A DNA stretch of 64,000 nucleotides from an uncultured Clostridium sp. GTDB taxonomy: Bacteria > Bacillota_I > Bacilli_A > RF39 > UBA660. Numbering within the stretch: the first letter of the stretch is position 1; each line of letters begins with the position of its first letter. Positions 8,035 to 44,640 of this stretch are shown piece after piece. Position numbers and translations under genes: made by a program. The stretch spans positions 14,925 through 78,924 of the forward strand of contig CAJJPX010000003.1 of NCBI GenBank assembly GCA_905193755.1. Reading direction: 5' to 3'. The notes beneath the pieces are model-generated. The model was not told the origin of the DNA. It was given only the letters and a program-made list of their open reading frames with translations, and searched no databases.

Positions 8035-9160
8035 AGTAATTGGTATAGTTGCTGAATATAATCCATTTCATAATGGACACAAGTATCAAATAGATAAAAT
8101 AAGAGAAAAATATAAAGACTCAACTATTATAGTAGTATGTTCTTCATCATTTACCCAAAGAGGAGACACATCAGTACTTAATAAGTTTGATAAAGCAGAA
8201 GTTGCTCTTAATAATGGAGTTAATTTAGTAGTTGAACTTCCTTATGTTTATAGTACTCAAAGTAGTGATATATTTGCTAGCGCTGCTATAAAGATACTTA
8301 ACTATTTAAAAGTTGATACTATATGTTTTGGTACTGAAAGAGATAGTATTGGTGATATAAAGAAATGTGCTATTACACAGTTAAATGATCCAAGGTATGA
8401 GAAAATCGTAAAAGAACAATTAGATCTTGGCGTTAACTACCCTACTGCTTTAAATAAAGCATTAATGAAACTTATAGATATAGAAATAACTGAACCTAAT
8501 GATTTACTTGCTTTAAGTTATGTAAAAGAAATAATAAAAAATGAATATAACATAGAAATATTCAATATAAAAAGAACTAATGATTTTCATGATATAGAAT
8601 CTAACGATAGTATTATTTCTGCATCTAATGTTAGAAATAAGATAATGAATAATATTGATATTAAAGATTATGTACCAAATGATGTATATTTGAAACTTAA
8701 AGATATAAAACTTAATGATAAGTATTTTGAATTTTTAAAATATAAGATATATTCTGAAAATGATTTAGAAAAATATTTAGATGTAGATGAAGGACTAAGT
8801 ACAAGAATTAGAAATTCTATTGGTAAATCTAATAGTCTTGATGAGTTAATTTTAAATATTAAGACTAAAAGATATACTTATAATAAAATATCTAGAATGC
8901 TTAATCATATACTTTGTTCATTTACTAAGGATGAGAGAGATCAAACTAAAGATATAGAATATATAAGAGTACTTGGATTTGATAAAGTTGGTCAAAAACA
9001 TTTAAATAGTTTTAAAGATAAGATTGAAATTAAAATACTTAATAAGTTTGATACTAGCTACAAAGCTTTAGATATTGAAAAAAGAGTTAGTAGTATATAT
9101 TCTATGATAATGTCTGACATAATGGATAAAGAAATTAAAAATATACCAGTTAAAAAGTGA
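8027..9160 (+). CDS. tmcAL: tRNA(Met) cytidine acetate ligase (YlbM/TmcAL family nucleotidyltransferase)
   Basis: N-terminal GIVAEYNPFHNGHKYQ signature of the YlbM/UPF0348 family. Length is 377 aa. Confidence 0.8.
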   Translation: MNKVIGIVAEYNPFHNGHKYQIDKIREKYKDSTIIVVCSSSFTQRGDTSVLNKFDKAEVALNNGVNLVVELPYVYSTQSSDIFASAAIKILNYLKVDTICFGTERDSIGDIKKCAITQLNDPRYEKIVKEQLDLGVNYPTALNKALMKLIDIEITEPNDLLALSYVKEIIKNEYNIEIFNIKRTNDFHDIESNDSIISASNVRNKIMNNIDIKDYVPNDVYLKLKDIKLNDKYFEFLKYKIYSENDLEKYLDVDEGLSTRIRNSIGKSNSLDELILNIKTKRYTYNKISRMLNHILCSFTKDERDQTKDIEYIRVLGFDKVGQKHLNSFKDKIEIKILNKFDTSYKALDIEKRVSSIYSMIMSDIMDKEIKNIPVKK

Positions 9161-9176
9161 CTTTTGGGGTCACTTT
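9155..9176. terminator. Bidirectional hairpin between convergent tmcAL and polA
   Basis: aaaagtgac-ttttgg-ggtcactttt overlaps both stop codons. Confidence 0.6.
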
Positions 9177-11743
9177 TATTTTGCTTCGTACCAGTCTTTA
9201 CCGTAGTTTATTTCTACTTTTAGTGGTACATCTAATTTATATATATTTTCCATAGTATCTTTAACTATTTCTTTTACTTCTTCTATTTCTTCTTCTGGTA
9301 CATCAAATATTAATTCATCGTGAACTTGTAATAACATTTTAGTTTTTAAATTCTTCTCTTTTAATATATTATGAAGTTTAACCATAGCCATTTTAAGTAT
9401 ATCAGCAGCTGTTCCTTGTATTGGAGTATTAAGTGCCATTCTTTCTCCCATAGCTCTAATCATATAGTTTGTATTCTTTAATTCTTCTATTTCTCTTTTT
9501 CTATTAAATAGAGTTCTTACTTCTCCAGTTTTCTTTGCTTCTTCAACAATATTTTTCATATAATTATTTACTTCTGGATATAGTGTTAAATATTTATCTA
9601 TATATTTTTTTGCTTCACTAGCACTTATATCAAGGTTTTCACCTAGTCCATAACCACTTATACCATAGACTATACCAAATATTACTGCTTTAGCTGTACG
9701 TCTTTGATTTGGTGTTACTTCATTTTCTCTTATACCAAATATATCACTAGCTACATGTGTATGTATATCTTCACCATGAATGAATGCATTTTTAAGGCTA
9801 TCAGAAGAACTTATATGAGCAAGTACTCTTAGTTCGATTTGTGAGTAATCGCTTGATAGAAGGTATCCATTTGTACTTGGAATGAATGCTTTTCTAATCT
9901 TTTTTCCTTCTTCACTTCTTACAGGTATATTTTGAAGGTTTGGTTCAACTGATGATAGTCTTCCAGTACGTGTACCAGTCTGTTTATATATAGTATGTAT
10001 TTTGCCATCTTCTAAGATGTAACTATTGAATGTATCTAAGTATGTACTTACTAATTTAGATAGGTTTCTATATTCTAATATTTCATTTATGATTGGAAAT
10101 TTATCTTTATATTTAATTAATACATCGTGAGCTGTTGATGTTGCATTTTTACCTTTACCTTTTGGAAGACCAATCTTTTCATAAAGGATGTCTCCTAGTT
10201 GTTTAGGACTTCCTATATTAAATGTTTCACCAGCTAGTTCATATATTTTATTTTCTATTATAGTTAATCTTTCTTTTAATTCTTTTGATAAATCTTCTAT
10301 AATATTTGGTCTTACACTTATACCATTTATTTCCATAGTAGATAGTACTTCTATTAGTGGATGCTCTATATTAGTATAGAGATTATAAAGATTTTCATTC
10401 TTTAACTTGTTATTGAAGTCTTCGTATGTATCATATAAGAATTTAGATTTTTTAACTATTGAAGTAATTATTTCTTCTTCACTAAGTGGATTTTTCTTTG
10501 AAATAATTGTGTCATAGTAAGGTATTTCTATTCCATATGTTGTACTTATGTATGAAACATCATCTTTAACATTGTATTCAAGTAAGTATGAAGCTATTAG
10601 TGTGTCAAATGATGTATGTGTTTCGATACCTAGTTTATTTAAGAATACTATGTTCTTTTTATAGTCAAAAGTTACTAATATATCTTTTAGTAAATCTCTA
10701 TTTAGAAGTAGGCTTGCTTCATCAAAATAATATGCATTCTTTCCATCATAGATAGATGCACCTATGAAGTTTGCTTTGTTATAGTTAGCGTTATCTAGTT
10801 CTATGTAAAGACTTTTTTTACCTTCTATTTCTACTTTACCTTTTACGATAGTGTAAGCTACGTCTTTTTTATCTACTTTAGTTGGAATAGATTTTAAGAA
10901 TGAATTGAATTCTAGTTCCTTGTATTTTTCTATTAATGCTTTTGTATTTGGTTTTAAGTATTTGATACTGTCAAAAGTATATTCGAAGTCTATTGTTTTA
11001 TAGATAGTTGCTAGTTTATATGAGAAGTATGCATTTTCTTTATCATTTTCTAGTTTTTCTTTTGTTTTACCACCTATGTCATCTAAATGATTATAGATTC
11101 CATCTAAAGTTTCATATTTTTGAAGAAGTGAAAGTGCTGTTTTCTCTCCTATTCCTTTAACACCAGGTATGTTGTCACTAGCATCTCCCATTAATGATTT
11201 TAGATCAATCATTCTAATAGGTTTAATACCATATACTTCCATAAATTTATTTTCATCCATCATTATGTAGTCTTTTTGTTTTAGAAGTTTTACGTTTACT
11301 TCATCACTAATTAATTGTAGTAAATCTTTATCACTACTTATGATAGTTGCATTATAGTTTTTGTCTTCGTCTGCCATTCTTGCGAATGTACCAATGATAT
11401 CATCAGCTTCATAGTTATCACATTCGATATATTTGATACCAAGGAGTGTACATATTTCTTTAGCTTCTTTGAATTGTACTTTTAAATCTTGTGGTGTTTC
11501 GATACGACCATCTTTATAGTTATCATACATATCTTGTCTAAAGTTGTGTCCTTTATCGAATGCTACCATTATATATTCAGGATTTTCTTCATTAATTATT
11601 TTATTTAACATGTTGATAAATCCATATAATGCGTTTGTTGGGAATCCTTTACTATTTTTCATTAAGTTTCCATTGTATGCAGTTGCATAGTAACTTCTAA
11701 ATAATAAGTTGTTTCCATCTATTAAAATTGCTCTTTTCTTCAT
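9176..11743 (-). CDS. polA: DNA polymerase I
   Basis: 5'-nuclease N-terminus (ILIDGNNLLFRSYYA). Pol motifs DYSQIELRVLAH (A), RRTAKAVIFGIVYG (B) and QVHDELIF (C). The likely true start is ATG 11743 (MKKRAIL), preceded by AAAGGTGAGGA. The ORF-track start at 11752 is a GTG inside the RBS. Confidence 0.95.
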   Translation of the reverse strand: MKKRAILIDGNNLLFRSYYATAYNGNLMKNSKGFPTNALYGFINMLNKIINEENPEYIMVAFDKGHNFRQDMYDNYKDGRIETPQDLKVQFKEAKEICTLLGIKYIECDNYEADDIIGTFARMADEDKNYNATIISSDKDLLQLISDEVNVKLLKQKDYIMMDENKFMEVYGIKPIRMIDLKSLMGDASDNIPGVKGIGEKTALSLLQKYETLDGIYNHLDDIGGKTKEKLENDKENAYFSYKLATIYKTIDFEYTFDSIKYLKPNTKALIEKYKELEFNSFLKSIPTKVDKKDVAYTIVKGKVEIEGKKSLYIELDNANYNKANFIGASIYDGKNAYYFDEASLLLNRDLLKDILVTFDYKKNIVFLNKLGIETHTSFDTLIASYLLEYNVKDDVSYISTTYGIEIPYYDTIISKKNPLSEEEIITSIVKKSKFLYDTYEDFNNKLKNENLYNLYTNIEHPLIEVLSTMEINGISVRPNIIEDLSKELKERLTIIENKIYELAGETFNIGSPKQLGDILYEKIGLPKGKGKNATSTAHDVLIKYKDKFPIINEILEYRNLSKLVSTYLDTFNSYILEDGKIHTIYKQTGTRTGRLSSVEPNLQNIPVRSEEGKKIRKAFIPSTNGYLLSSDYSQIELRVLAHISSSDSLKNAFIHGEDIHTHVASDIFGIRENEVTPNQRRTAKAVIFGIVYGISGYGLGENLDISASEAKKYIDKYLTLYPEVNNYMKNIVEEAKKTGEVRTLFNRKREIEELKNTNYMIRAMGERMALNTPIQGTAADILKMAMVKLHNILKEKNLKTKMLLQVHDELIFDVPEEEIEEVKEIVKDTMENIYKLDVPLKVEINYGKDWYEAK

Positions 11744-11811: not shown

Positions 11812-12561
11812 TTATATCTCTATAGTTTCACTTATTTTATCTTTATATGCTACATATATTGGAATGTTTGGATCTATTGATTCTCTATTTACTTCGTATG
11901 CTTTTTCATAAGTGTTATCGTTTTCACTTATATGTACTAACATTATATCTTTAGTATTTGGTCCTATAAAATGATTTAAATATTTAGCACAGTCTTCATT
12001 TGATAAGTGGCCTTCATCACCTATATTTCTATATTTTATGTATTCAAACTTATTACCATTCATTTCCATTTCTACATCGTGATTACTTTCTAATAAGTAT
12101 ACTGTTTTATTTTTCATTTTCTCATGATATCTTGAATGTATCATACCAGTATCAGTCATGTATACTAGTGATTTACCATCTTTTTCAAATACAAATCCAA
12201 AACCTTTTTTATCATGACTTATAGGTATTTTAGTAAATTTGATTCCCATAATATTATCTAGTTCATCAAATAATTCATAGTTTTTTATATAATCTTTTTT
12301 GCTATATTCATTTAATGTTTCAATAGAAATATATATTTTAGTATTATAAACTCTATTAAATGAATGAACACTTTTGACGTGATCTGAGTGAGCATGTGTT
12401 ACGATTATAAAATCTATATCTTCAGGACGTTCATTAATACTATAAAGTGCATCTTTTAGTTTTCCGAATTGAAGTCCTGCATCTATTAAAAATTTAACAT
12501 TATCAATATTAACAAAAGTAGAGTTTCCACTACTACTACTTCCTAAAACTACAATTTTCAT
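11812..12561 (-). CDS. MBL-fold metallo-hydrolase (YycJ-like)
   Basis: VTHAHSDH zinc-binding motif. MKIVVLGSSSSGNS N-terminus. Confidence 0.75.
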   Translation of the reverse strand: MKIVVLGSSSSGNSTFVNIDNVKFLIDAGLQFGKLKDALYSINERPEDIDFIIVTHAHSDHVKSVHSFNRVYNTKIYISIETLNEYSKKDYIKNYELFDELDNIMGIKFTKIPISHDKKGFGFVFEKDGKSLVYMTDTGMIHSRYHEKMKNKTVYLLESNHDVEMEMNGNKFEYIKYRNIGDEGHLSNEDCAKYLNHFIGPNTKDIMLVHISENDNTYEKAYEVNRESIDPNIPIYVAYKDKISETIEI

Positions 12562-12640
12562 ATAACCACCAGGTAATATTATAGCATAATCAAAAGAAAA
12601 ATTACCAGTTATGCTAATCTTAATATATCTTTTTTAAATT

Positions 12641-12663
12641 AAAAGAAGCCAAAGGCTTCTTTT
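12641..12663 (-). terminator. Terminator after the Type III res gene
   Basis: aaaagaagcc-aaa-ggcttctttt hairpin just below the res stop (12677), with a T-run on the minus strand. Confidence 0.7.
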
Positions 12664-12676
12664 GCTACATTCTTAA

Positions 12677-15586
12677 TCAATTTTTAAAATCTGAAAAATA
12701 ATTGGTTGCGACTTGATATCCTATATTTGTATCGAGTGCATCAAAATGTTTTCTTGCACATTCTATTTTGCCATTTTCAGTTCCTCTTCTATCCGATTTA
12801 TGCATACTACCTTTTGTTTCAACTATAAAATATAATTTATCTTCTCCATCTTCGTTCATTACTATTGCCCAGTCAGGGATATGATTACCTAATGGTGTGT
12901 CTATAGTAAACCAACTAGGTAATTTAATATACATTTTGCAATCTTCATCCTCTTCCATGTCTTTTGCAAAATCTTTTTCTATTCCTGAATCATATATAGT
13001 ATAGTTATATACTCCTTTTTGCGATTCAATTGCATTTGAATCTAAATATGCTTTTAAATTATCAATTTCAAACAAACTTTGTTCGTAACAATCATTTACT
13101 TTTATATATTGTATACCCTTTACCAATTGCATTTTTTTATTTTTTAATATAATTCTACTTACTTCTTCAAGATATTTTTGAGGATTATCAAAGAAATCAT
13201 TTAGTCTTTCAGATAAAGTTATAATTTTATAAGCTGTTTCTCTTTTTATATTAGTTGTATCTTGAATGTATCTCATTGGATCAGGATAAGAAGTGTTTTG
13301 TTCTAATAAAGAAACAGGTTTTATTGTTTGTACAGTTGTACCTATACCATTTTTAGATATATTTAGTTTTACATTTTCAGCTCTAATTCTTTGTTTTTTT
13401 ATTTGAGGCATACTTTTTATATCATCAATACAATCTTGTATAAATTCATCAGTGTTCATATTTACTGAGTATGTTGTTTTATGCTTGATTTTATTCCACA
13501 ATTCTTTAAAATCATCATTAAGATAAACCTCTTTATTAAGTTTTACAGATACTTCTTTATTTGCATCTTTTATTGTAACTTTCGTATTTACTTTATCTAA
13601 CTTGAAATATATATCATCTAAATATAAAGACATTTCATCTGGAAAGTCTATTCTTCTATATTTAATATCTGATTTACCTTTTTCAGTAATTTTTCCTGAA
13701 GGTGTTATTGTTTCATTTTTAAGTAAAGCGTCATATATTTCTTCTGAAACCTTTATTCCTATTTCTTCATATTCACCAGATTGATTTTTTATTGTAATAT
13801 CTGCAAAATAATTTTTTTCTATTATTCCAAATCTAACATTTGTTTCTTGTTCTATTTCTTTTTGAAGTTCATCTGCAAAAGTTTTATAGGATTCATTGGC
13901 GATTACCGTAAGTTCATTATATATATAATTTTCCACTCTTTCTCCTGATTGGTTAACACATAATCTTAAACCTCTTCCTATCTTTTGCCTTTTTGTCATA
14001 TTATCTTTGGTTTCAACAAGAGTACAAACTTGAAAAACATTTGGATTATCCCAACCTTCTTTTAGTGCAGAATGTGAAAAAATGAATCTTAGTGGCTCAT
14101 CAAAACTTAATAATGTTTCTTTATTCTTCATAATTTTTTCATAAACTGATTGATCTGCTATTGTATCTCCATTTGTATTTTTTACTCTACCCTTACCATC
14201 TATTGAAAAATAGCCATCATGAACTTTCTTAACATCATAATAATCCGGATTTGAATCCCTTAAATCTTTAAATTTTGTGTTTATTAATTCATTATACACT
14301 TCTTCGAACATTTTATAATATTCTCCAGGTATTTCATTTCCATCTTTATCATAATTACGATACTTTGATACTTCATCGATAAAAAATAAGCTTAATACTT
14401 TTATTCCTTCTTTAGTATATTGTCTTTCTTTCTTTAGATGCGTTGCTATTGTTGTTTTTATTTGTGCTCTTTTTATTAAAGACATATCAATATCTCCAAT
14501 TACCTCTCCAATGTATAGTATTTGTCCTGTTGTAAACTGTATATACTCATTTCCAGGTGTAGTATCTATATCATCTAAAATATAATTAGAATAACATTCT
14601 AAGTTTGTATTATCTTTTAAGTTATCGTCTGTTTTTATAGTTATTACTTTCTTTTCAAGTGTTCCGTCAGATTTTCTTGATTTAACTTCGACTTTTGCAC
14701 TATAACCTTTTTTGTCAGAAACTGAAATCAATTTAATGTAAGCGTTTTCAGCATTTTCATCACTTAGTACCGAACTAACAGATATCTGTTTTACTAATTT
14801 TTTGTTATATGCTTCTACAGCATCTAATTTATACATTAAATCATATTTTTCTTTATGTGTAGCTGAATATCTTAATTGGCATAATGGATTTAGTCTACTA
14901 ATTGCTTCTTTAGATTTCGCAGTGTTATCAACACTTTGTGGTTCATCTATAATTACAATAGGGTTTGTATTACTAATTAAATCTATCGGAGTATGATCAT
15001 TGATACTTTCGTTAGGTCTATACATTAAATTTGATTTCTTACTGTCTTTACCAAAATCAGAAATGAATGCACCTATTGTAATAATCATAATTTGTATATC
15101 TGTGCTTAATGCAAAGGTCGCTATTTGACCTCCTTTTTTAGAATCGTAAATAAAATAATTATAACTAACATTATCATATAAACTTCTAAAATGCTCTTCA
15201 GTTATTTTAAATGACTTGTAAACTCCTTCTTTGATAGCTATGCTTGGAACTACAATAATAAATTTTGTAAATCCATATTTTTTATTCAATTCAAGTATTG
15301 TTTTTGTATATACGTATGTTTTACCAGTACCAGTTTCCATTTCTATAGTAAAATTCATTTTACTAAGATCTGTACTTCTTGTTAATTTATTATTTAGTTG
15401 TATGTTTCTTACATTTTCTAGTATTTGTTCCTCTGATAAATTTAAATAATTCCCTGTGCCTTGTGTAAGAATAGAATTAGGAGCTACAGTGAAATTAGAT
15501 TTTTTCATTTGTTGGCCATTGAAAATTTGTACAATTGAGTTAACTGCTTCTGTTTGATATTCCTGAATACTAAATTTTAATTTCAT
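12677..15586 (-). CDS. res: Type III restriction enzyme, Res subunit (SF2 helicase/ATPase + PD-(D/E)xK nuclease)
   Basis: Walker A/motif I METGTGKTYVY. Motif II IIDEPQSV. C-terminal nuclease-like PDWAIV...FIVETKG. The 969-aa size and the position directly after the mod genes are typical. Confidence 0.88.
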   Translation of the reverse strand: MKLKFSIQEYQTEAVNSIVQIFNGQQMKKSNFTVAPNSILTQGTGNYLNLSEEQILENVRNIQLNNKLTRSTDLSKMNFTIEMETGTGKTYVYTKTILELNKKYGFTKFIIVVPSIAIKEGVYKSFKITEEHFRSLYDNVSYNYFIYDSKKGGQIATFALSTDIQIMIITIGAFISDFGKDSKKSNLMYRPNESINDHTPIDLISNTNPIVIIDEPQSVDNTAKSKEAISRLNPLCQLRYSATHKEKYDLMYKLDAVEAYNKKLVKQISVSSVLSDENAENAYIKLISVSDKKGYSAKVEVKSRKSDGTLEKKVITIKTDDNLKDNTNLECYSNYILDDIDTTPGNEYIQFTTGQILYIGEVIGDIDMSLIKRAQIKTTIATHLKKERQYTKEGIKVLSLFFIDEVSKYRNYDKDGNEIPGEYYKMFEEVYNELINTKFKDLRDSNPDYYDVKKVHDGYFSIDGKGRVKNTNGDTIADQSVYEKIMKNKETLLSFDEPLRFIFSHSALKEGWDNPNVFQVCTLVETKDNMTKRQKIGRGLRLCVNQSGERVENYIYNELTVIANESYKTFADELQKEIEQETNVRFGIIEKNYFADITIKNQSGEYEEIGIKVSEEIYDALLKNETITPSGKITEKGKSDIKYRRIDFPDEMSLYLDDIYFKLDKVNTKVTIKDANKEVSVKLNKEVYLNDDFKELWNKIKHKTTYSVNMNTDEFIQDCIDDIKSMPQIKKQRIRAENVKLNISKNGIGTTVQTIKPVSLLEQNTSYPDPMRYIQDTTNIKRETAYKIITLSERLNDFFDNPQKYLEEVSRIILKNKKMQLVKGIQYIKVNDCYEQSLFEIDNLKAYLDSNAIESQKGVYNYTIYDSGIEKDFAKDMEEDEDCKMYIKLPSWFTIDTPLGNHIPDWAIVMNEDGEDKLYFIVETKGSMHKSDRRGTENGKIECARKHFDALDTNIGYQVATNYFSDFKN

Positions 15587-15597
15587 ACTATTACCTC

Positions 15598-17490
15598 CTA
15601 AATGCTTTTTATCTTTTCTTCATCGATTCCTATTTTCTTAAGTTCTTGTAATGCATTTACTTTAGCATTTTCATCTTTAAAACCAGAATCTTTAAAAATA
15701 ATTATTGTGGGATTTAGCTTTCCTATTTCCTTTACTAATCCAACGTCAATTTCGTCTTGTAAACAAACAACCATTTTTTCATCTTCTAAGTGATAAATTT
15801 TTTTGGTATTTATATTTTTTTCCTTGATTTGTGATGAAAGTGTTATTCCTTCTTTTAATAGAATTTCATATAAAATATCATCATTTGTTCTTCCTTCAAC
15901 GATTGGGTCGATGTGTTCATAAAAGTATTTATTTGCATTATCTATCGTTAAATCTTCACTATTCCATACTTTAATATTACTAGTATCAAGTTTAAATACT
16001 TTAAATCCATAATCAATTTTCGCTTTTGTTTCTTCTTTTATTTTTTTACCAGCACGTCTTATTCTTTCTTCTCCAATATCGCATATTGTTTTATAATCTT
16101 TTATTGATTCATCGCTTATAATTTCTGGTAATTGAATCATGATATATTTTCTATTTCCTTCATCTTCCGCATTCATTTGCATTATTGCATCTGCAGTTGT
16201 GGCACTTCCACTAAAGAAATCTAGAACGTATGATTCTTTATCCATTTGTATTATTTTAGCTAAATATTTTATTAATTTAGTTGGTTTTGGAAAAGAAAAT
16301 GGTATATCTAATCTCGCTAATTCCTCAGAACCATTTCTATTTAGAAATCCTTCAAATATATCGCGTGGAATGTTTCCTTTATCTTTCTTGTCATTTAAAT
16401 AGCTTTTTGTATAAATATTCCATTTAGCTTGTTTTCCATATTGATTTAATAAAGGTGACTTTTTGGTTTTTTTAAAAACAAGAAGATTTTTCTTTAATAA
16501 GTATTGCGATTGTTCCCATCTCCATACACCATCTCCTTTGTTTGGGAGAACTTTTGAACCATCTTTTTCTTCTTGAGGCATAGTACCTCCAGGTGGTATA
16601 ACAAGTTCTCCATCAGGACATTCAATGTAATATCTTTGATTTGGTCGTGTCTCTAATGTTGTAAGGTAAAATGCTATATCATCTCTATAATATTCACCTT
16701 TTCTTTCACCATCATGTTCTACTTTTTTAAATTGATCATCATTAGTTACTTCATCAACAAAGTGCGATAAATTATTAATATTTTTTGCATAGCATAGAAT
16801 ATAATCTTTACTTGGAGCAAAGAAATTTCCTCTAAAACTAGTTGTTTTAGATACTCTTGTAATATTAGATATGAAATTAATTTCTCCGAATAATTCATCA
16901 CATACTTTTCTTAAATTTGTGACTTCATTTTCATCTATTGATATAAATATAATACCATCATCAGATAAAAGATTCTTCGCTAATCTAAGTCTTGGATATA
17001 TCATATTTAACCACTTTGTATGAAATCTTCCATTTGTTTCACTATTTGCTTTATATTTTTGATTTGTTTGTTCTTTGTAGTTTTGTAATGGATCTTTAAA
17101 TGAATCGTTATATATAAAGTCTCCACTAGTATTATAAGGTGGATCTATATATATCATTTTTATTTTTTTATAGTATGATTTTTGGAGAATTTTAAGAACC
17201 TCTAAATTGTCTCCCTCAATATAAACGTTGTTTGTATTGTCCCAATCAATGCTTTTTTCAGGACAAGGAATCAGTGTACCTGTTGTTGACATGTCAGCTA
17301 TTTTAGTTGATTCTTCTTTTCCATTCCAAGTAAAACTGTAGATTTCTTCTTTTTCATTTAAATTTCCTAATATACTTTTTAATATATTAAAATCTACTTT
17401 ATTTTCTTTAATAACTTCAGGAAATAGACAACCTAATTTTTTAATGTTTTCATTTACTATATCCATTGATGTACTACAGACTTTTTTCAT
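15598..17490 (-). CDS. mod: Type III Mod DNA methyltransferase (N6-adenine, beta class), copy 2 of 2
   Basis: Motif IV IYIDPPYNT precedes motif I LDFFSGSATTADA. RBS-coupled to res (11-nt gap) and to the upstream mod (8-nt gap). Confidence 0.88.
   Translation of the reverse strand: MKKVCSTSMDIVNENIKKLGCLFPEVIKENKVDFNILKSILGNLNEKEEIYSFTWNGKEESTKIADMSTTGTLIPCPEKSIDWDNTNNVYIEGDNLEVLKILQKSYYKKIKMIYIDPPYNTSGDFIYNDSFKDPLQNYKEQTNQKYKANSETNGRFHTKWLNMIYPRLRLAKNLLSDDGIIFISIDENEVTNLRKVCDELFGEINFISNITRVSKTTSFRGNFFAPSKDYILCYAKNINNLSHFVDEVTNDDQFKKVEHDGERKGEYYRDDIAFYLTTLETRPNQRYYIECPDGELVIPPGGTMPQEEKDGSKVLPNKGDGVWRWEQSQYLLKKNLLVFKKTKKSPLLNQYGKQAKWNIYTKSYLNDKKDKGNIPRDIFEGFLNRNGSEELARLDIPFSFPKPTKLIKYLAKIIQMDKESYVLDFFSGSATTADAIMQMNAEDEGNRKYIMIQLPEIISDESIKDYKTICDIGEERIRRAGKKIKEETKAKIDYGFKVFKLDTSNIKVWNSEDLTIDNANKYFYEHIDPIVEGRTNDDILYEILLKEGITLSSQIKEKNINTKKIYHLEDEKMVVCLQDEIDVGLVKEIGKLNPTIIIFKDSGFKDENAKVNALQELKKIGIDEEKIKSI
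15901..16158. repeat. 258-bp block nearly identical to 17802-18059 (direct repeat between the two mod genes)
   Basis: Manual alignment at offset +1901 shows 4 mismatches (15910, 16081, 16096, 16114). Flanking homology decays to roughly 70-80 percent. Confidence 0.9.
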
Positions 17491-17498
17491 AAAACCTC

Positions 17499-19325
17499 CT
17501 ATATACTCTTTACTTTTTCCGCATCTATTCCTGAATTTTTTAATTCTTGTAATGCGTTAACTTTAGCATTTTCATCTTTAAAGCCAGAATCTTTAAATAT
17601 AACAACTTCAGGTTTTAGTTTTCCTATTTCTTTTACTAAGTTTATATCAATATCATCTTCTAGACAAATAATCATGGAACCATTATTAATTACATATAAT
17701 AAATTATTATTTATCTTTTCTTCTTTGATCTGTGATGATAGTATTATTCCTTCTTTTAACAGAATTTCATATAAAATATCATCTTCTGTTCTTCCTTCAA
17801 CGATTGGGTCAATGTGTTCATAAAAGTATTTATTTGCATTATCTATCGTTAAATCTTCACTATTCCATACTTTAATATTACTAGTATCAAGTTTAAATAC
17901 TTTAAATCCATAATCAATTTTCGCTTTTGTTTCTTCTTTTATTTTTTTACCAGCACGTCTTATTCTTTCTTCTCCAATATCACATATTGTTTTATAGTCT
18001 TTTATTGATTCATCACTTATAATTTCTGGTAATTGAATCATGATATATTTTCTATTTCCATTTGTTTCTGCATTTAGCTGTAGTGTTGCTTCTGCTGATG
18101 CTGCACTTCCACTGAAAAAATCCATTATGAAGTCATTCTCATTTGTTGATACTCTAATCAATTCTTTTATTAGTTTTGTTGGTTTTGGTGTGTCAAAAAT
18201 ATTTCTATTTCCAAAAAGTGTTTCTAACTCATCTTTTGCTGATGATGAAGTTCCTACTCCTCTAAGTATACTTTCCATACTATATTCTTTTTCTTCGTTT
18301 TCAAATGTTTTAATTCTTGGTACTCCATTTCCATTCTTTGGATAAAAAATTCTATTGTCTGTATCTAACTTGTAAAACTCATCTTTAGAAATAAACCACT
18401 GTCTTGTTATTTCTTTGCCACTTGGTGTTGTTATTGAATAATAATAATCAGAAGTTTTATCTTCATTCTTGTGACCTTCTTCGTATGAAATAATTCCAGA
18501 AGACCATGGACCACGTGGATCATTATCAGGGTTAGTTTGTTTGTTTTTCCATTCTGGTTTTCTCATAAACTTATTGAATATTGTATCTCTTTTATTTTTA
18601 TAACACAAAATTATGTACTCATGTATTTCTTTATATCTATTTATTATTTTTGCGTTTGTATTTCTGTCTACTTGAGAATCCATTTTTTGCCAAATAATAC
18701 AATCTACATTTGCTTTTCCAAAAATTTCTTCACATATTTTTTTTAAATTTTCTTGCTCATTATCATCTATACTTATAAATAGAATGCCATCATCAGTAAG
18801 TAAGCTCATTGAAAGAAGCAATCTTGGGTATATCATATTAAGCCAATCAGTATGAAATCTTCCATTTGTTTCAGGATTTGCTTTATTTTCTTGTTCAGTT
18901 ATTTTTTTATAATTTTTTATCGTCTCTTTATAATCATCTTTGTAAACGAAATCATTGCCTGTATTATATGGTGGATCTATATAAATTGCTTTTATTTTAT
19001 TATGGTACGCTTTTTGCAGTATTTTTAAAACTTCTAAGTTATCACCTTCTATATATATATTATTTGTATTTTCCCAGTCAACGCTTTTATTTTTAATTGG
19101 TAATAAAGTTGCACAAGATGTAACTTGAATATATCGTTTGGCATTTTGTTTTCCATTCCAAGTGAATTGATATTTTTCATCATTTGAATCAGAAAATATT
19201 CCGAGTTTTTCTTTTAATAAATCTATATCAATTTTACCCTCTACTAATATTTCTGGAAATATTTTTGTAATTTTACTTATATTATCATTTATTATATTAA
19301 ATGATTCACTTTCAATTTTTTTCAT
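17499..19325 (-). CDS. mod: Type III Mod DNA methyltransferase (N6-adenine, beta class), copy 1 of 2, different central TRD
   Basis: IYIDPPYNT and MDFFSGSAASAEA. The N-terminal ~200 aa and C-terminal ~190 aa are homologous to the other mod. The central ~170 aa do not align by eye. Confidence 0.88.
   Translation of the reverse strand: MKKIESESFNIINDNISKITKIFPEILVEGKIDIDLLKEKLGIFSDSNDEKYQFTWNGKQNAKRYIQVTSCATLLPIKNKSVDWENTNNIYIEGDNLEVLKILQKAYHNKIKAIYIDPPYNTGNDFVYKDDYKETIKNYKKITEQENKANPETNGRFHTDWLNMIYPRLLLSMSLLTDDGILFISIDDNEQENLKKICEEIFGKANVDCIIWQKMDSQVDRNTNAKIINRYKEIHEYIILCYKNKRDTIFNKFMRKPEWKNKQTNPDNDPRGPWSSGIISYEEGHKNEDKTSDYYYSITTPSGKEITRQWFISKDEFYKLDTDNRIFYPKNGNGVPRIKTFENEEKEYSMESILRGVGTSSSAKDELETLFGNRNIFDTPKPTKLIKELIRVSTNENDFIMDFFSGSAASAEATLQLNAETNGNRKYIMIQLPEIISDESIKDYKTICDIGEERIRRAGKKIKEETKAKIDYGFKVFKLDTSNIKVWNSEDLTIDNANKYFYEHIDPIVEGRTEDDILYEILLKEGIILSSQIKEEKINNNLLYVINNGSMIICLEDDIDINLVKEIGKLKPEVVIFKDSGFKDENAKVNALQELKNSGIDAEKVKSI
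17802..18059. repeat. Partner copy of the 258-bp mod-mod direct repeat
   Basis: See 15901-16158. Confidence 0.9.
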
Positions 19326-19643
19326 GATTCACCTCAACTTGATTAATATTCTTTTTTTATTATAACATGTATTATTTCAAACATAAAGAAATTAGACAAA
19401 TTGATTTACTTTTCTTGTGATAAATTATTCTTTATTTGCAATAAATTTTGTTTTTCATCGTTATACTTAGGTATCTTTGTTATAATTCTCGTAAAAAACA
19501 ATGATGTAATTTGTTAATTTTACCATTCTATTATTATAGTTAGTTATAAAAACAAAAAACACGTCTTTAATGTAGATTGAAATTTATTAACTTTTTTAAT
19601 TTAAGTAGTTACATTTTGTGATTATTTTTTTCTTGTAAAATAA

Positions 19644-19662
19644 AAGAAGCTTAATGCTTCTT
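19644..19662 (-). terminator. polC terminator
   Basis: aagaagc-ttaat-gcttctt hairpin overlapping the polC stop. On the minus strand it is followed by TTATTTT. Confidence 0.65.
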
Positions 19663-43715: not shown

Positions 43716-43791
43716 TGGTGCTGAAAATAGGAATTGAACCCACAACCTACTGATTACGATTCAGTTGCTCTACCACTTGAGCTATTTCAGC
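43716..43791 (-). tRNA. tRNA-Thr (anticodon CGU)
   Basis: Manual cloverleaf: GCTGAAA TA GCTC AAGTGGTA GAGC A ACTGA ATCGTAA TCAGT AGGTT GTGGG TTCAATT CCTAT TTTCAGC A CCA. 76 nt with encoded CCA. Confidence 0.9.
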
Positions 43792-43792
43792 A

Positions 43793-43866
43793 TGGTTGCC
43801 TCAATAGGATTCGAACCTATGATGCTGGAGTCAGAGTCCAGAGCCTTACCACTTGGCCATGAGGCA
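43793..43866 (-). tRNA. tRNA-Gln (anticodon CUG)
   Basis: TGCCTCA TG GCC AAGTGGTAA GGC T CTGGA CTCTGAC TCCAG CATC ATAGG TTCGAAT CCTAT TGAGGCA A CCA. U1-A72 and a 3-bp D stem, as in Bacillus tRNA-Gln. Confidence 0.88.
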
Positions 43867-44288: not shown

Positions 44289-44640
44289 TGGTGGAGATGA
44301 GGAGTAGCGAACTCCTGTCCAAGATTCATCCCAGTAGAACTTCTACAAGTTTAGTTGGTTTTTAATTTCAAATAATAATGTAGATTGCCAACTTCTCTTA
44401 TTATTCTAGGATTGCTAATTATTCTTTATAAACCACAAACAAATTTATAATATAGCTCACTTTATGACTCCCAACTTAAAACTCGTGAGCAAAAGTTAAA
44501 AGCGGAAGCTCCGTTTTACTTAATTAAGCAAAAGCTGGAGAGAAATTAAAATCGTTTCCGATTATTTTTGTTTTGCATTTAAAGTATGCCTACTACTTGC
44601 ATCCTACCCAGACATAATCCTGTCGAATCAATGCATCCCC
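44289..44640 (-). ncRNA. ssrA: tmRNA (SsrA)
   Basis: 5' end GGGGATGCATTGATTCGACAGG. 3' end GGACAGGAGTTCGCTACTCCTCATCTCCACCA. The acceptor stem pairs GGGGATG/CATCTCC with a G3-U wobble. The internal reading frame AAA ACA AAA ATA ATC GGA AAC GAT TTT AAT TTC TCT CCA GCT TTT GCT TAA ends in the hydrophobic AFA-stop (stop at 44524-44526). Confidence 0.92.

Follow-up and report, generated by a model that had tools for sequence, protein, structure and literature searches.

A Type III restriction-modification operon with two tandem mod genes and a single res gene in an uncultured small-genome bacterium of the human gut

The 64,000-nt stretch of DNA analysed here (hereafter the window; ~27% GC) comes from an uncultured Clostridium sp. 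and carries a restriction-modification (R-M) operon of Type III in which two complete modification genes, modA and modB, precede a single restriction gene, res. The three genes follow one another on the same strand, with mod upstream of and adjoining res in the same operon, as in Type III systems:

19325..17499, minus strand: modA, Type III modification subunit of 608 aa, with DPPY at aa 117-120, FSGSA at 404-408 and a target recognition domain (TRD) NPDNDPRG...
17490..15598, minus strand: modB, a further modification subunit of Type III (630 aa), with DPPY at aa 116-119, FSGSA at 426-430 and a TRD RPNQRY...
15586..12677, minus strand: res, Type III restriction subunit of 969 aa

A preliminary description of this DNA had reported two mods of 608 and 630 aa followed by res, and the three open reading frames (ORFs) lie, on the minus strand, exactly where it had placed them. 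The intergenic gaps are 8 nt between modA and modB and 11 nt between modB and res. At both junctions, the stop codon of the mod gene overlaps a TAGGAGG ribosome-binding site (RBS), the junction sequences being ...ATA TAG GAGGTTTT ATG and ...ATT TAG GAGGTAATAGT ATG, which bears out the RBS coupling that had been proposed along with these gaps. Terminators sit only outside the modA-modB-res cluster. Promoter-like matches across the region are overall fewer than in shuffled sequence; therefore, the promoter listed here is a candidate only:

19359..19399, minus strand: candidate promoter upstream of modA (TTGTCT, 17 nt, AATAAT, extended -10 TGTTATAAT), from a consensus scan and sequence reading
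19662-19644: hairpin terminator 3' of polC
12641..12662, minus strand: terminator-like hairpin 3' of res (AAAGAAGCCTTTGGCTTCTTTT), from sequence reading and repeat I1/D13

Type III systems hemimethylate an asymmetric site of 5-6 bp, and their ATP-dependent cleavage requires two inversely oriented unmethylated sites. Both Mods match the Pfam family N6_N4_Mtase (PF01555) and align end to end with the PADLOC model MTase_III (PDLC03634, E about 1e-184), through residues 2-607 for ModA (model positions 3-620/621) and 2-629 for ModB. In both, DPPY comes before motif I with a variable region between them, which is the order of beta-class N6-adenine methyltransferases (MTases). The two Mods had been described as having DPPY and FxGxG motifs: DPPY is present, whereas the literal FxGxG is not, since motif I has the family-typical form FSGSA. 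Moreover, the MTase core is surrounded by the N-terminal domain (NTD) and C-terminal domain (CTD) specific to Type III enzymes, according to the four-domain plan of EcoP15I. The EcoP15I Mod (4ZCF_A) is matched in phmmer searches by ModA with E=3e-49 and by ModB with E=2.5e-49, and both proteins also match two other solved Type III Mods, 6K0W and Mbo45V (7DSU). AlphaFold2 models have a confidence score (pLDDT) of 80 for ModA and 84 for ModB, with both TRDs folded confidently. Foldseek retrieves 4ZCF_A with E=4e-36 for ModA and E=1e-35 for ModB, and superposition on 4ZCF_A/B covers 665-688 aligned columns with TM scores of 0.60-0.70; the nearest PDB neighbours of the models are the two EcoP15I Mod protomers, followed by 6K0W and the Mbo45V Mod. 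Furthermore, both Mods keep every invariant column of a 30-sequence family alignment.

Res matches the Pfam families ResIII, DEAD and RE_endonuc. It has an N-terminal superfamily 2 (SF2) helicase/ATPase with the motifs GTGKT (86-90) and DEPQ (214-217), and a C-terminal PD-(D/E)xK nuclease with the motif PD...ETK (904-926; read as PDW...ETKG). Its only sequence match in the PDB is EcoP15I Res (4ZCF_C; E=7e-62 over residues 47-966), and the PADLOC model REase_III covers residues 1-958 with E=2e-304. The NCBIfam model PRK15483 scores 379 bits for an equivalog cut-off of 564; hence, Res is a member of this family and not that equivalog. Full-length model matches and motifs thus confirm the operon as Type III, with one Res and two complete beta-class Mods, as the preliminary description had it, and both Mods are apparently functional.

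ModA and ModB are 52% identical overall. Their N-terminal ~205 aa are ~60-65% identical, their C-terminal ~230 aa are largely near-identical, and the centre (about residues 205-375 of ModA and 205-397 of ModB) aligns poorly; in this protein alignment we thus find the homologous ends and the non-aligning central region that had been noticed before. The two Mods were also compared segment by segment with ~100 homologues. Over the first 205 and the final 73 aa, Mods of other organisms are at least as close to ModA and ModB as these two are to each other, and several foreign Mods outrank ModB as relatives of the N-terminus of ModA and of both tails. Near-identity being confined to a patch of ~300 nt behind the TRD, the pair is not a recent duplicate. 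Only the segment that follows the TRD is exceptional, with 84% identity between ModA and ModB over 160 aa. At the DNA level, it contains a direct repeat of 300 nt with 96% identity that includes an exact run of 170 nt:

17708..18007, minus strand: direct repeat copy 1, in modA (exact run 17812-17981)
15807..16106, minus strand: direct repeat copy 2, in modB (exact run 15911-16080)

The stretch of protein encoded by this repeat runs from the last part of the MTase domain through the linker into the first part of the CTD, which corresponds approximately to residues 470-565 of EcoP15I. Hence, the two-mod locus is made of two diverged alleles in tandem with one homogenised module and is not a fresh in-situ duplication.

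The two TRDs have different relatives. That of ModA (TRD-A) is of a common family type; it is 78% identical to that of one homologue (P0004) and aligns with the TRD of 6K0W. That of ModB (TRD-B) has weak relatives among the ModA homologues (best 42%), and shows 75% identity over the TRD-region query, and 58% over a 398-aa alignment, with P0302, a contig-truncated Mod located upstream of RhuM and Res in a Firmicute spore-former. Both TRD types are used in other loci whose visible part has one mod. An origin of TRD-B from another MTase class was considered, the best matches of ~410 aa looking like stand-alone enzymes, and was rejected because one of them, P0302, proved to be a Type III Mod truncated by the end of its contig.

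The gene order polC-modA-modB-res-MBL-polA (MBL, metallo-beta-lactamase) was found in seven further contigs (L098-L104), obtained with different assemblers in several metagenome studies of the human gut, Hadza samples among them; both mods are intact in all of these contigs. Cluster look-ups gave eight full-length protein variants of ModA and eight of ModB, all of the same length and frame for each gene. These variants pair up across their source contigs: seven of the eight ModA variants come from two-mod haplotypes, and the eighth is a chimera described below. With a synonymous polymorphism (pS) of up to 3% relative to the allele of the window, the ratio of nonsynonymous to synonymous polymorphism (pN/pS) is 0.05-0.13 for modA, 0.20-0.23 for modB and 0.19-0.29 for res. 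The three genes thus look to be under constraint by purifying selection, and the two-mod layout is real and selectively maintained.

The same contigs provide information on the history of the patch of ~300 nt. A polymorphism at nt 1401/1404 (AG or TA) segregates in either copy across strains, nt 1318 has the same base in both copies within a strain and a different base between strains, and the exact run within the patch varies from 110 to 198 nt between strains. These polymorphisms common to both paralogues point to an ongoing process and indicate that the patch is kept near-identical by gene conversion between modA and modB. The longest simple sequence repeat (SSR) tracts of the mods are A8, (AT)5 and (ATT)4, in genes of 27% GC; scans of the mods with TRF and regular expressions revealed no longer SSR tract, no long repeats and no variation in SSR length. 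The SSR that each mod carries for ON/OFF phase variation in the Mycoplasma type of locus is therefore lacking here.

One contig (L001; Logan, SRR31240009) has the order polC-mod-res-MBL-polA with a single mod of 608 aa. In a three-way nucleotide alignment, this mod follows modA with essentially no difference as far as nt ~1344-1515 and matches modB from that point to the stop codon, and this chimera with the body of modA and the tail of modB is intact. It is what would be expected from homologous recombination between the two copies of the repeat. A k-mer assembly that mis-traversed the repeat would give an identical picture. Nine other Logan contigs with the same Res allele (L089-L097) begin 250-380 nt upstream of res, five of them ~355 nt upstream, at the position expected for the 3' fork of the repeat in the window. 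Since these contigs break at the fork and L001 runs through it, L001 is probably a true one-mod genotype; we consider it quite likely that this single observation is a real deletion.

The structure of EcoP15I suggests how two such Mods could work with one Res. In EcoP15I, the two Mods pair by way of their NTDs and MTase domains; the TRD of one protomer reads the site, the other protomer flips and methylates the adenine, and Res is held by the MTase domain and CTD of the reading protomer, whose CTD is the only one to contact Res (PMC4490356). According to the available part of another study, the dimer binds one specific DNA only (PMC4005696). Since the regions through which the EcoP15I Mod contacts Res and the second Mod are conserved between ModA and ModB, two specificities sharing one Res appear to be the most likely arrangement. 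Hence, by analogy with EcoP15I, we think it rather probable that this is a working Type III operon whose two Mods, with unrelated TRDs, confer two specificities through one shared Res. ModA2 and ModB2 would each methylate their own asymmetric site and would each recruit the same Res, with its helicase and PD-ExK nuclease, so the cell would restrict DNA that lacks either mark and gain two specificities for one extra gene of 1.9 kb. From the 84% identity over 160 aa and from the intact chimera of L001, we infer that each Mod probably forms an active holoenzyme with the single Res. The homogenised patch overlaps part of the region that would face Res, which fits selection for both Mods to suit one Res. 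The same repeat would, from time to time, mediate a deletion that leaves an ordinary operon with one mod.

Mixed ModA/ModB dimers may form as well. The preliminary description had proposed that such dimers could bring the number of specificities served by one Res to three. Of this proposal, two specificities can be retained as the most likely number, and a third, specific to the heterodimer, is unlikely, given that a single EcoP15I protomer reads the DNA (PMC4490356; available part of PMC4005696). Since one protomer reads and the other methylates, a ModA/ModB dimer should still recognise site A or site B.

Multi-mod loci with a single res are already known. In Mycoplasma bovis PG45, the locus registered in REBASE as Mbo45ORF167P comprises mod1, mod2, mod3 and one res, and Mbo45V, made of Mod1 and Res (a Mod2Res1 enzyme, PDB 7DSU), recognises YAATC (preprint). 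The preprint also mentions a similar multi-mod cluster in M. pulmonis. As in M. bovis, from which the Mycoplasma type can be defined, the window has at least two paralogous full-length mods that have different TRDs and are associated with one res, the Mods of both loci being alike outside the TRD. However, the M. bovis mods each carry an AG repeat (11, 14 and 24 units) and are hence phase-variable (AG-repeat phase variation of Mycoplasma mods: PMC3498834), whereas those of the window are devoid of SSR. In addition, the M. bovis Mods are ~70% identical (52% in the window), and mod1 overlaps res by 14 bp, whereas the genes of the window are coupled by RBS gaps of 8 and 11 nt. Characterisation in M. 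bovis covers Mod1 and Res only; there too, it has yet to be demonstrated that several Mods use the same Res. The locus of the window is therefore a non-phase-variable member of an already reported multi-mod/one-res kind. The novelty implied by the preliminary description does not extend to the layout, which has precedents in REBASE (Mbo45ORF167P), in M. pulmonis and in seven of 160 related loci (see below); two specificities through one Res do remain experimentally unshown. In the literature covered by our search, which leaves aside the original M. pulmonis paper, we found no report of two Mods working simultaneously through one Res and no description of non-phase-variable tandem mods.

The prototype Type III systems EcoP15I and EcoP1I have the same Mod plan as the window (NTD, split beta-class MTase, inserted TRD, CTD), the same Res plan (SF2 helicase and PD-(D/E)xK nuclease) and mod before res. 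They differ by having one mod, with ~24% identity to the Mods of the window, and by being borne by a phage or plasmid instead of a chromosomal hotspot. In the mosaic mods of Haemophilus influenzae, Neisseria and Helicobacter pylori, recombination in conserved segments reshuffles TRDs, as seems to apply here. However, these TRDs are alleles of one locus across strains, whereas the window has two alleles fixed in tandem that exchange sequence.

In the family alignment A1 sample (80 metagenomic and 80 IMG/VR loci), seven of the 160 related loci (~4%) have two mods. Three metagenomic loci (L039, L045 and L059) have tight tandem mods and are cut by a contig end. The four viral or prophage loci (L115, L153, L156 and L183) have the order mod-mod-res, some with small ORFs between the genes, and the first mod copy of L183 is truncated. 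In all seven, the mods are on the same strand and their conserved N- and C-terminal parts flank a divergent TRD; the most similar DNA lies just after the TRD in L156 (92% over 388 nt) and L045 (85% over 293 nt). Since the GC content of tandem-mod loci ranges from 25 to 55%, the layout arose repeatedly. These loci differ from that of the window by their unrelated hosts and, for several of them, by extra small ORFs or SNF2/DUF4391 partners; none has been characterised. Furthermore, a tblastn search of plasmids returned 413 records, nearly all with one mod, and a search of genome contigs with the Res protein returned four distant loci (45-52% identity), each with a single mod that further genes separate from res.

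Several other features of these loci deserve mention. The first mod of L115 (664-2643) begins with a (RTNE)n peptide repeat, encoded by a 12-nt tandem repeat that could be a phase- or length-variable tract. Genes located between mod and res in L194, L195 (1308-2354) and L002-L005 include RhuM-family genes or inserts of 0.7-5 kb in metagenome-assembled genomes of Sulfurimonas and Geobacter. Relatives of the Mods are often found in four-gene clusters of an SNF2-type helicase, DUF4391, Mod and Res (for instance, L193 695-9489 and Bacillus cereus plasmids), a different Type III-like architecture that two tandem-mod loci also have (upstream ORFs of L039 and L045). The multi-hit plasmids of Enterococcus faecalis were considered as carriers of an intact tandem and rejected, as they hold a mod remnant disrupted by an insertion sequence, a 318-aa ORF, an intact mod and res. 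In two conjugative plasmids of this species, L006 (LR962462.1) and L007 (LR961972.1), the intact mod encodes 633 aa, and in L007 the remnant is split by a reverse-strand ORF between its halves, presumably an insertion element; the plasmid locus may be a decayed two-mod locus. Finally, short-read assemblies systematically break within Type III mods at the conserved 5' or 3' modules (P0301-P0420; L089-L097; L194/L195). Databases are therefore rich in 'methyltransferases' of ~410 aa that are truncated Mods, and counts of tandem or multi-allelic mods will be too low.

Several points weigh against two specificities sharing one Res. That the genes are co-expressed, that both Mods are active, that they share Res and how heterodimers behave are all deduced from sequence and from analogy with EcoP15I. 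The NTD, which is part of the dimer interface, is ~50% identical between ModA and ModB, so neither heterodimers nor equal access to Res are assured. A local hotspot of gene conversion would produce the same pattern in the patch as selection for Res fit. The data would also accommodate an operon in which only the res-proximal ModB couples productively to Res, ModA being a stand-alone methylase. Moreover, the substitution counts underlying the pN/pS values are small (2-11 per class), and the one-mod variant is known from a single short-read contig.

These points leave room for other readings of the tandem. It could be a transient stage of allele replacement, in which a foreign mod has recombined into a mod-res operon and the second specificity is an unselected, short-lived by-product. 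Direct repeats in tandem copies promote deletion, the chimera of L001 is exactly such a collapse product and the divergence between the two Mods matches that between alleles of different organisms; in addition, the available part of PMC1557822 describes central regions of mod that are hypervariable beside a conserved res and between conserved 5' and 3' segments. However, a short-lived state accords poorly with a tandem that persists in seven further contigs from several cohorts with intact ORFs, a pS of ~3% and low pN/pS for both mods, with the breakage of most Logan contigs of the same Res allele at the repeat fork, as two-mod genomes should do, and with the recurrence of similar tandems in unrelated lineages of 25 to 55% GC. 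We therefore consider it unlikely, without being negligible. A rather more speculative and fairly improbable proposal is that ModA and ModB mainly act as a natural heterodimer, the reader and writer roles of EcoP15I being carried by different polypeptides. Such an enzyme could behave unlike either homodimer, for instance through cross-methylation of site A by the catalytic centre of ModB, unequal access to Res or one further, composite specificity, and the gene-conversion patch would then keep the paralogues fitted to each other and to Res. In another reading, the heterodimer would be obligate or preferred, with one Mod mainly reading and the other mainly methylating or binding Res, so that the operon would effectively have one specificity. 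The separation of reading and methylation between EcoP15I protomers, with the reader's CTD alone touching Res (PMC4490356), would suit this division of labour, as would the equimolar synthesis expected from tight translational coupling. Yet DPPY, the S-adenosylmethionine motif and every family-invariant residue are kept in both paralogues, the two TRDs fold with confidence and are of types used elsewhere in loci visibly with one mod, and the one-mod chimera of L001 is an intact ordinary operon, all of which makes it distinctly unlikely.

Individual switching of the Mods, which would vary methylation and gene expression as a phasevarion, is suggested by the closest documented multi-mod loci, those of M. 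bovis and M. pulmonis, every mod of which has an AG repeat; modB can, moreover, be lost when the two copies of the direct repeat recombine. Nevertheless, no SSR of the mods exceeds A8, (AT)5 and (ATT)4, length and frame are identical in the eight variants of each gene, and a recombinational deletion is irreversible and thus not a switch. We regard this as very improbable. An assembly artefact that would have joined in tandem the alleles of two co-assembled strains is scarcely credible: the source is metagenomic and repeats within mods do break assemblies, but the order and the junctions are identical in MEGAHIT, metaSPAdes and scaffolded assemblies of different samples, in contigs of 8.7-73 kb, and the modA-modB junction, whose sequence is unique, has an RBS of its own.

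Should one Res work with both Mods, an insertion of 1.9 kb would double the range of DNA that can be restricted. This would be a cheap way of broadening defence in a genome of ~1.4 Mb and may explain the recurrence of tandem mods in ~4% of related loci. The operon also provides a natural test bed for the reader/writer model of EcoP15I, being presumably constitutive and SSR-free, with two different TRDs joined to Res-binding modules that are almost the same. Data at the population level illustrate its upkeep by concerted evolution of a shared module and its loss by repeat-mediated collapse. Furthermore, these results are useful for reading methylomes and for annotating Type III systems, which assemblers tend to break. 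The layout is uncommon and experimentally unexplored, yet neither unprecedented nor mechanistically surprising.

The whole operon lies in a variable segment of the chromosome:

12590..19624, no strand: variable island of 7.03 kb, lying between the terminator of polC (19644-19662) and the MBL-fold gene and holding the operon in full

With strains that lack the R-M system, homology breaks off at 19621-19625 and restarts at 12589. In other strains (L105-L112), this slot contains either a Bro-N gene alone or genes encoding an OLD-like AAA_15/TOPRIM ATPase, a MazG-like protein, an SLFN-g3/nSTAND3 helicase and Bro-N. A strain-variable defence hotspot therefore separates polC from the MBL-fold gene, and the R-M operon is one of its alternative cargoes. 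The standard genetic code applies, PolC is present, and the species has scaffolds of up to 1.38 Mb. PolA shows 76-78% identity to proteins recorded as 'MAG: Bacilli bacterium' and 'Clostridium sp. CAG:524'. An uncultured member of the Bacilli with a small genome, living in the human gut, is the host.

The MBL-fold protein encoded next to res (11812-12561, minus strand) has weak matches to the anti-Pycsar protein Apyc1 and to the MBL domains of the defence proteins RTasMBL and LmuA. Since its gene (a 318-member cluster) is kept in all strains whatever the cargo of the island, it is probably a housekeeping gene. A second small variable spot lies downstream of polA, where an ADP-ribosylglycohydrolase gene (equivalent to 9092-10045 of the window) is present in L001, L089 and L091-L093 and absent from L088, L090 and the L105 series. 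The window also contains a transfer-messenger RNA gene and two tRNA genes (44289-44640 and 43719-43866, minus strand).

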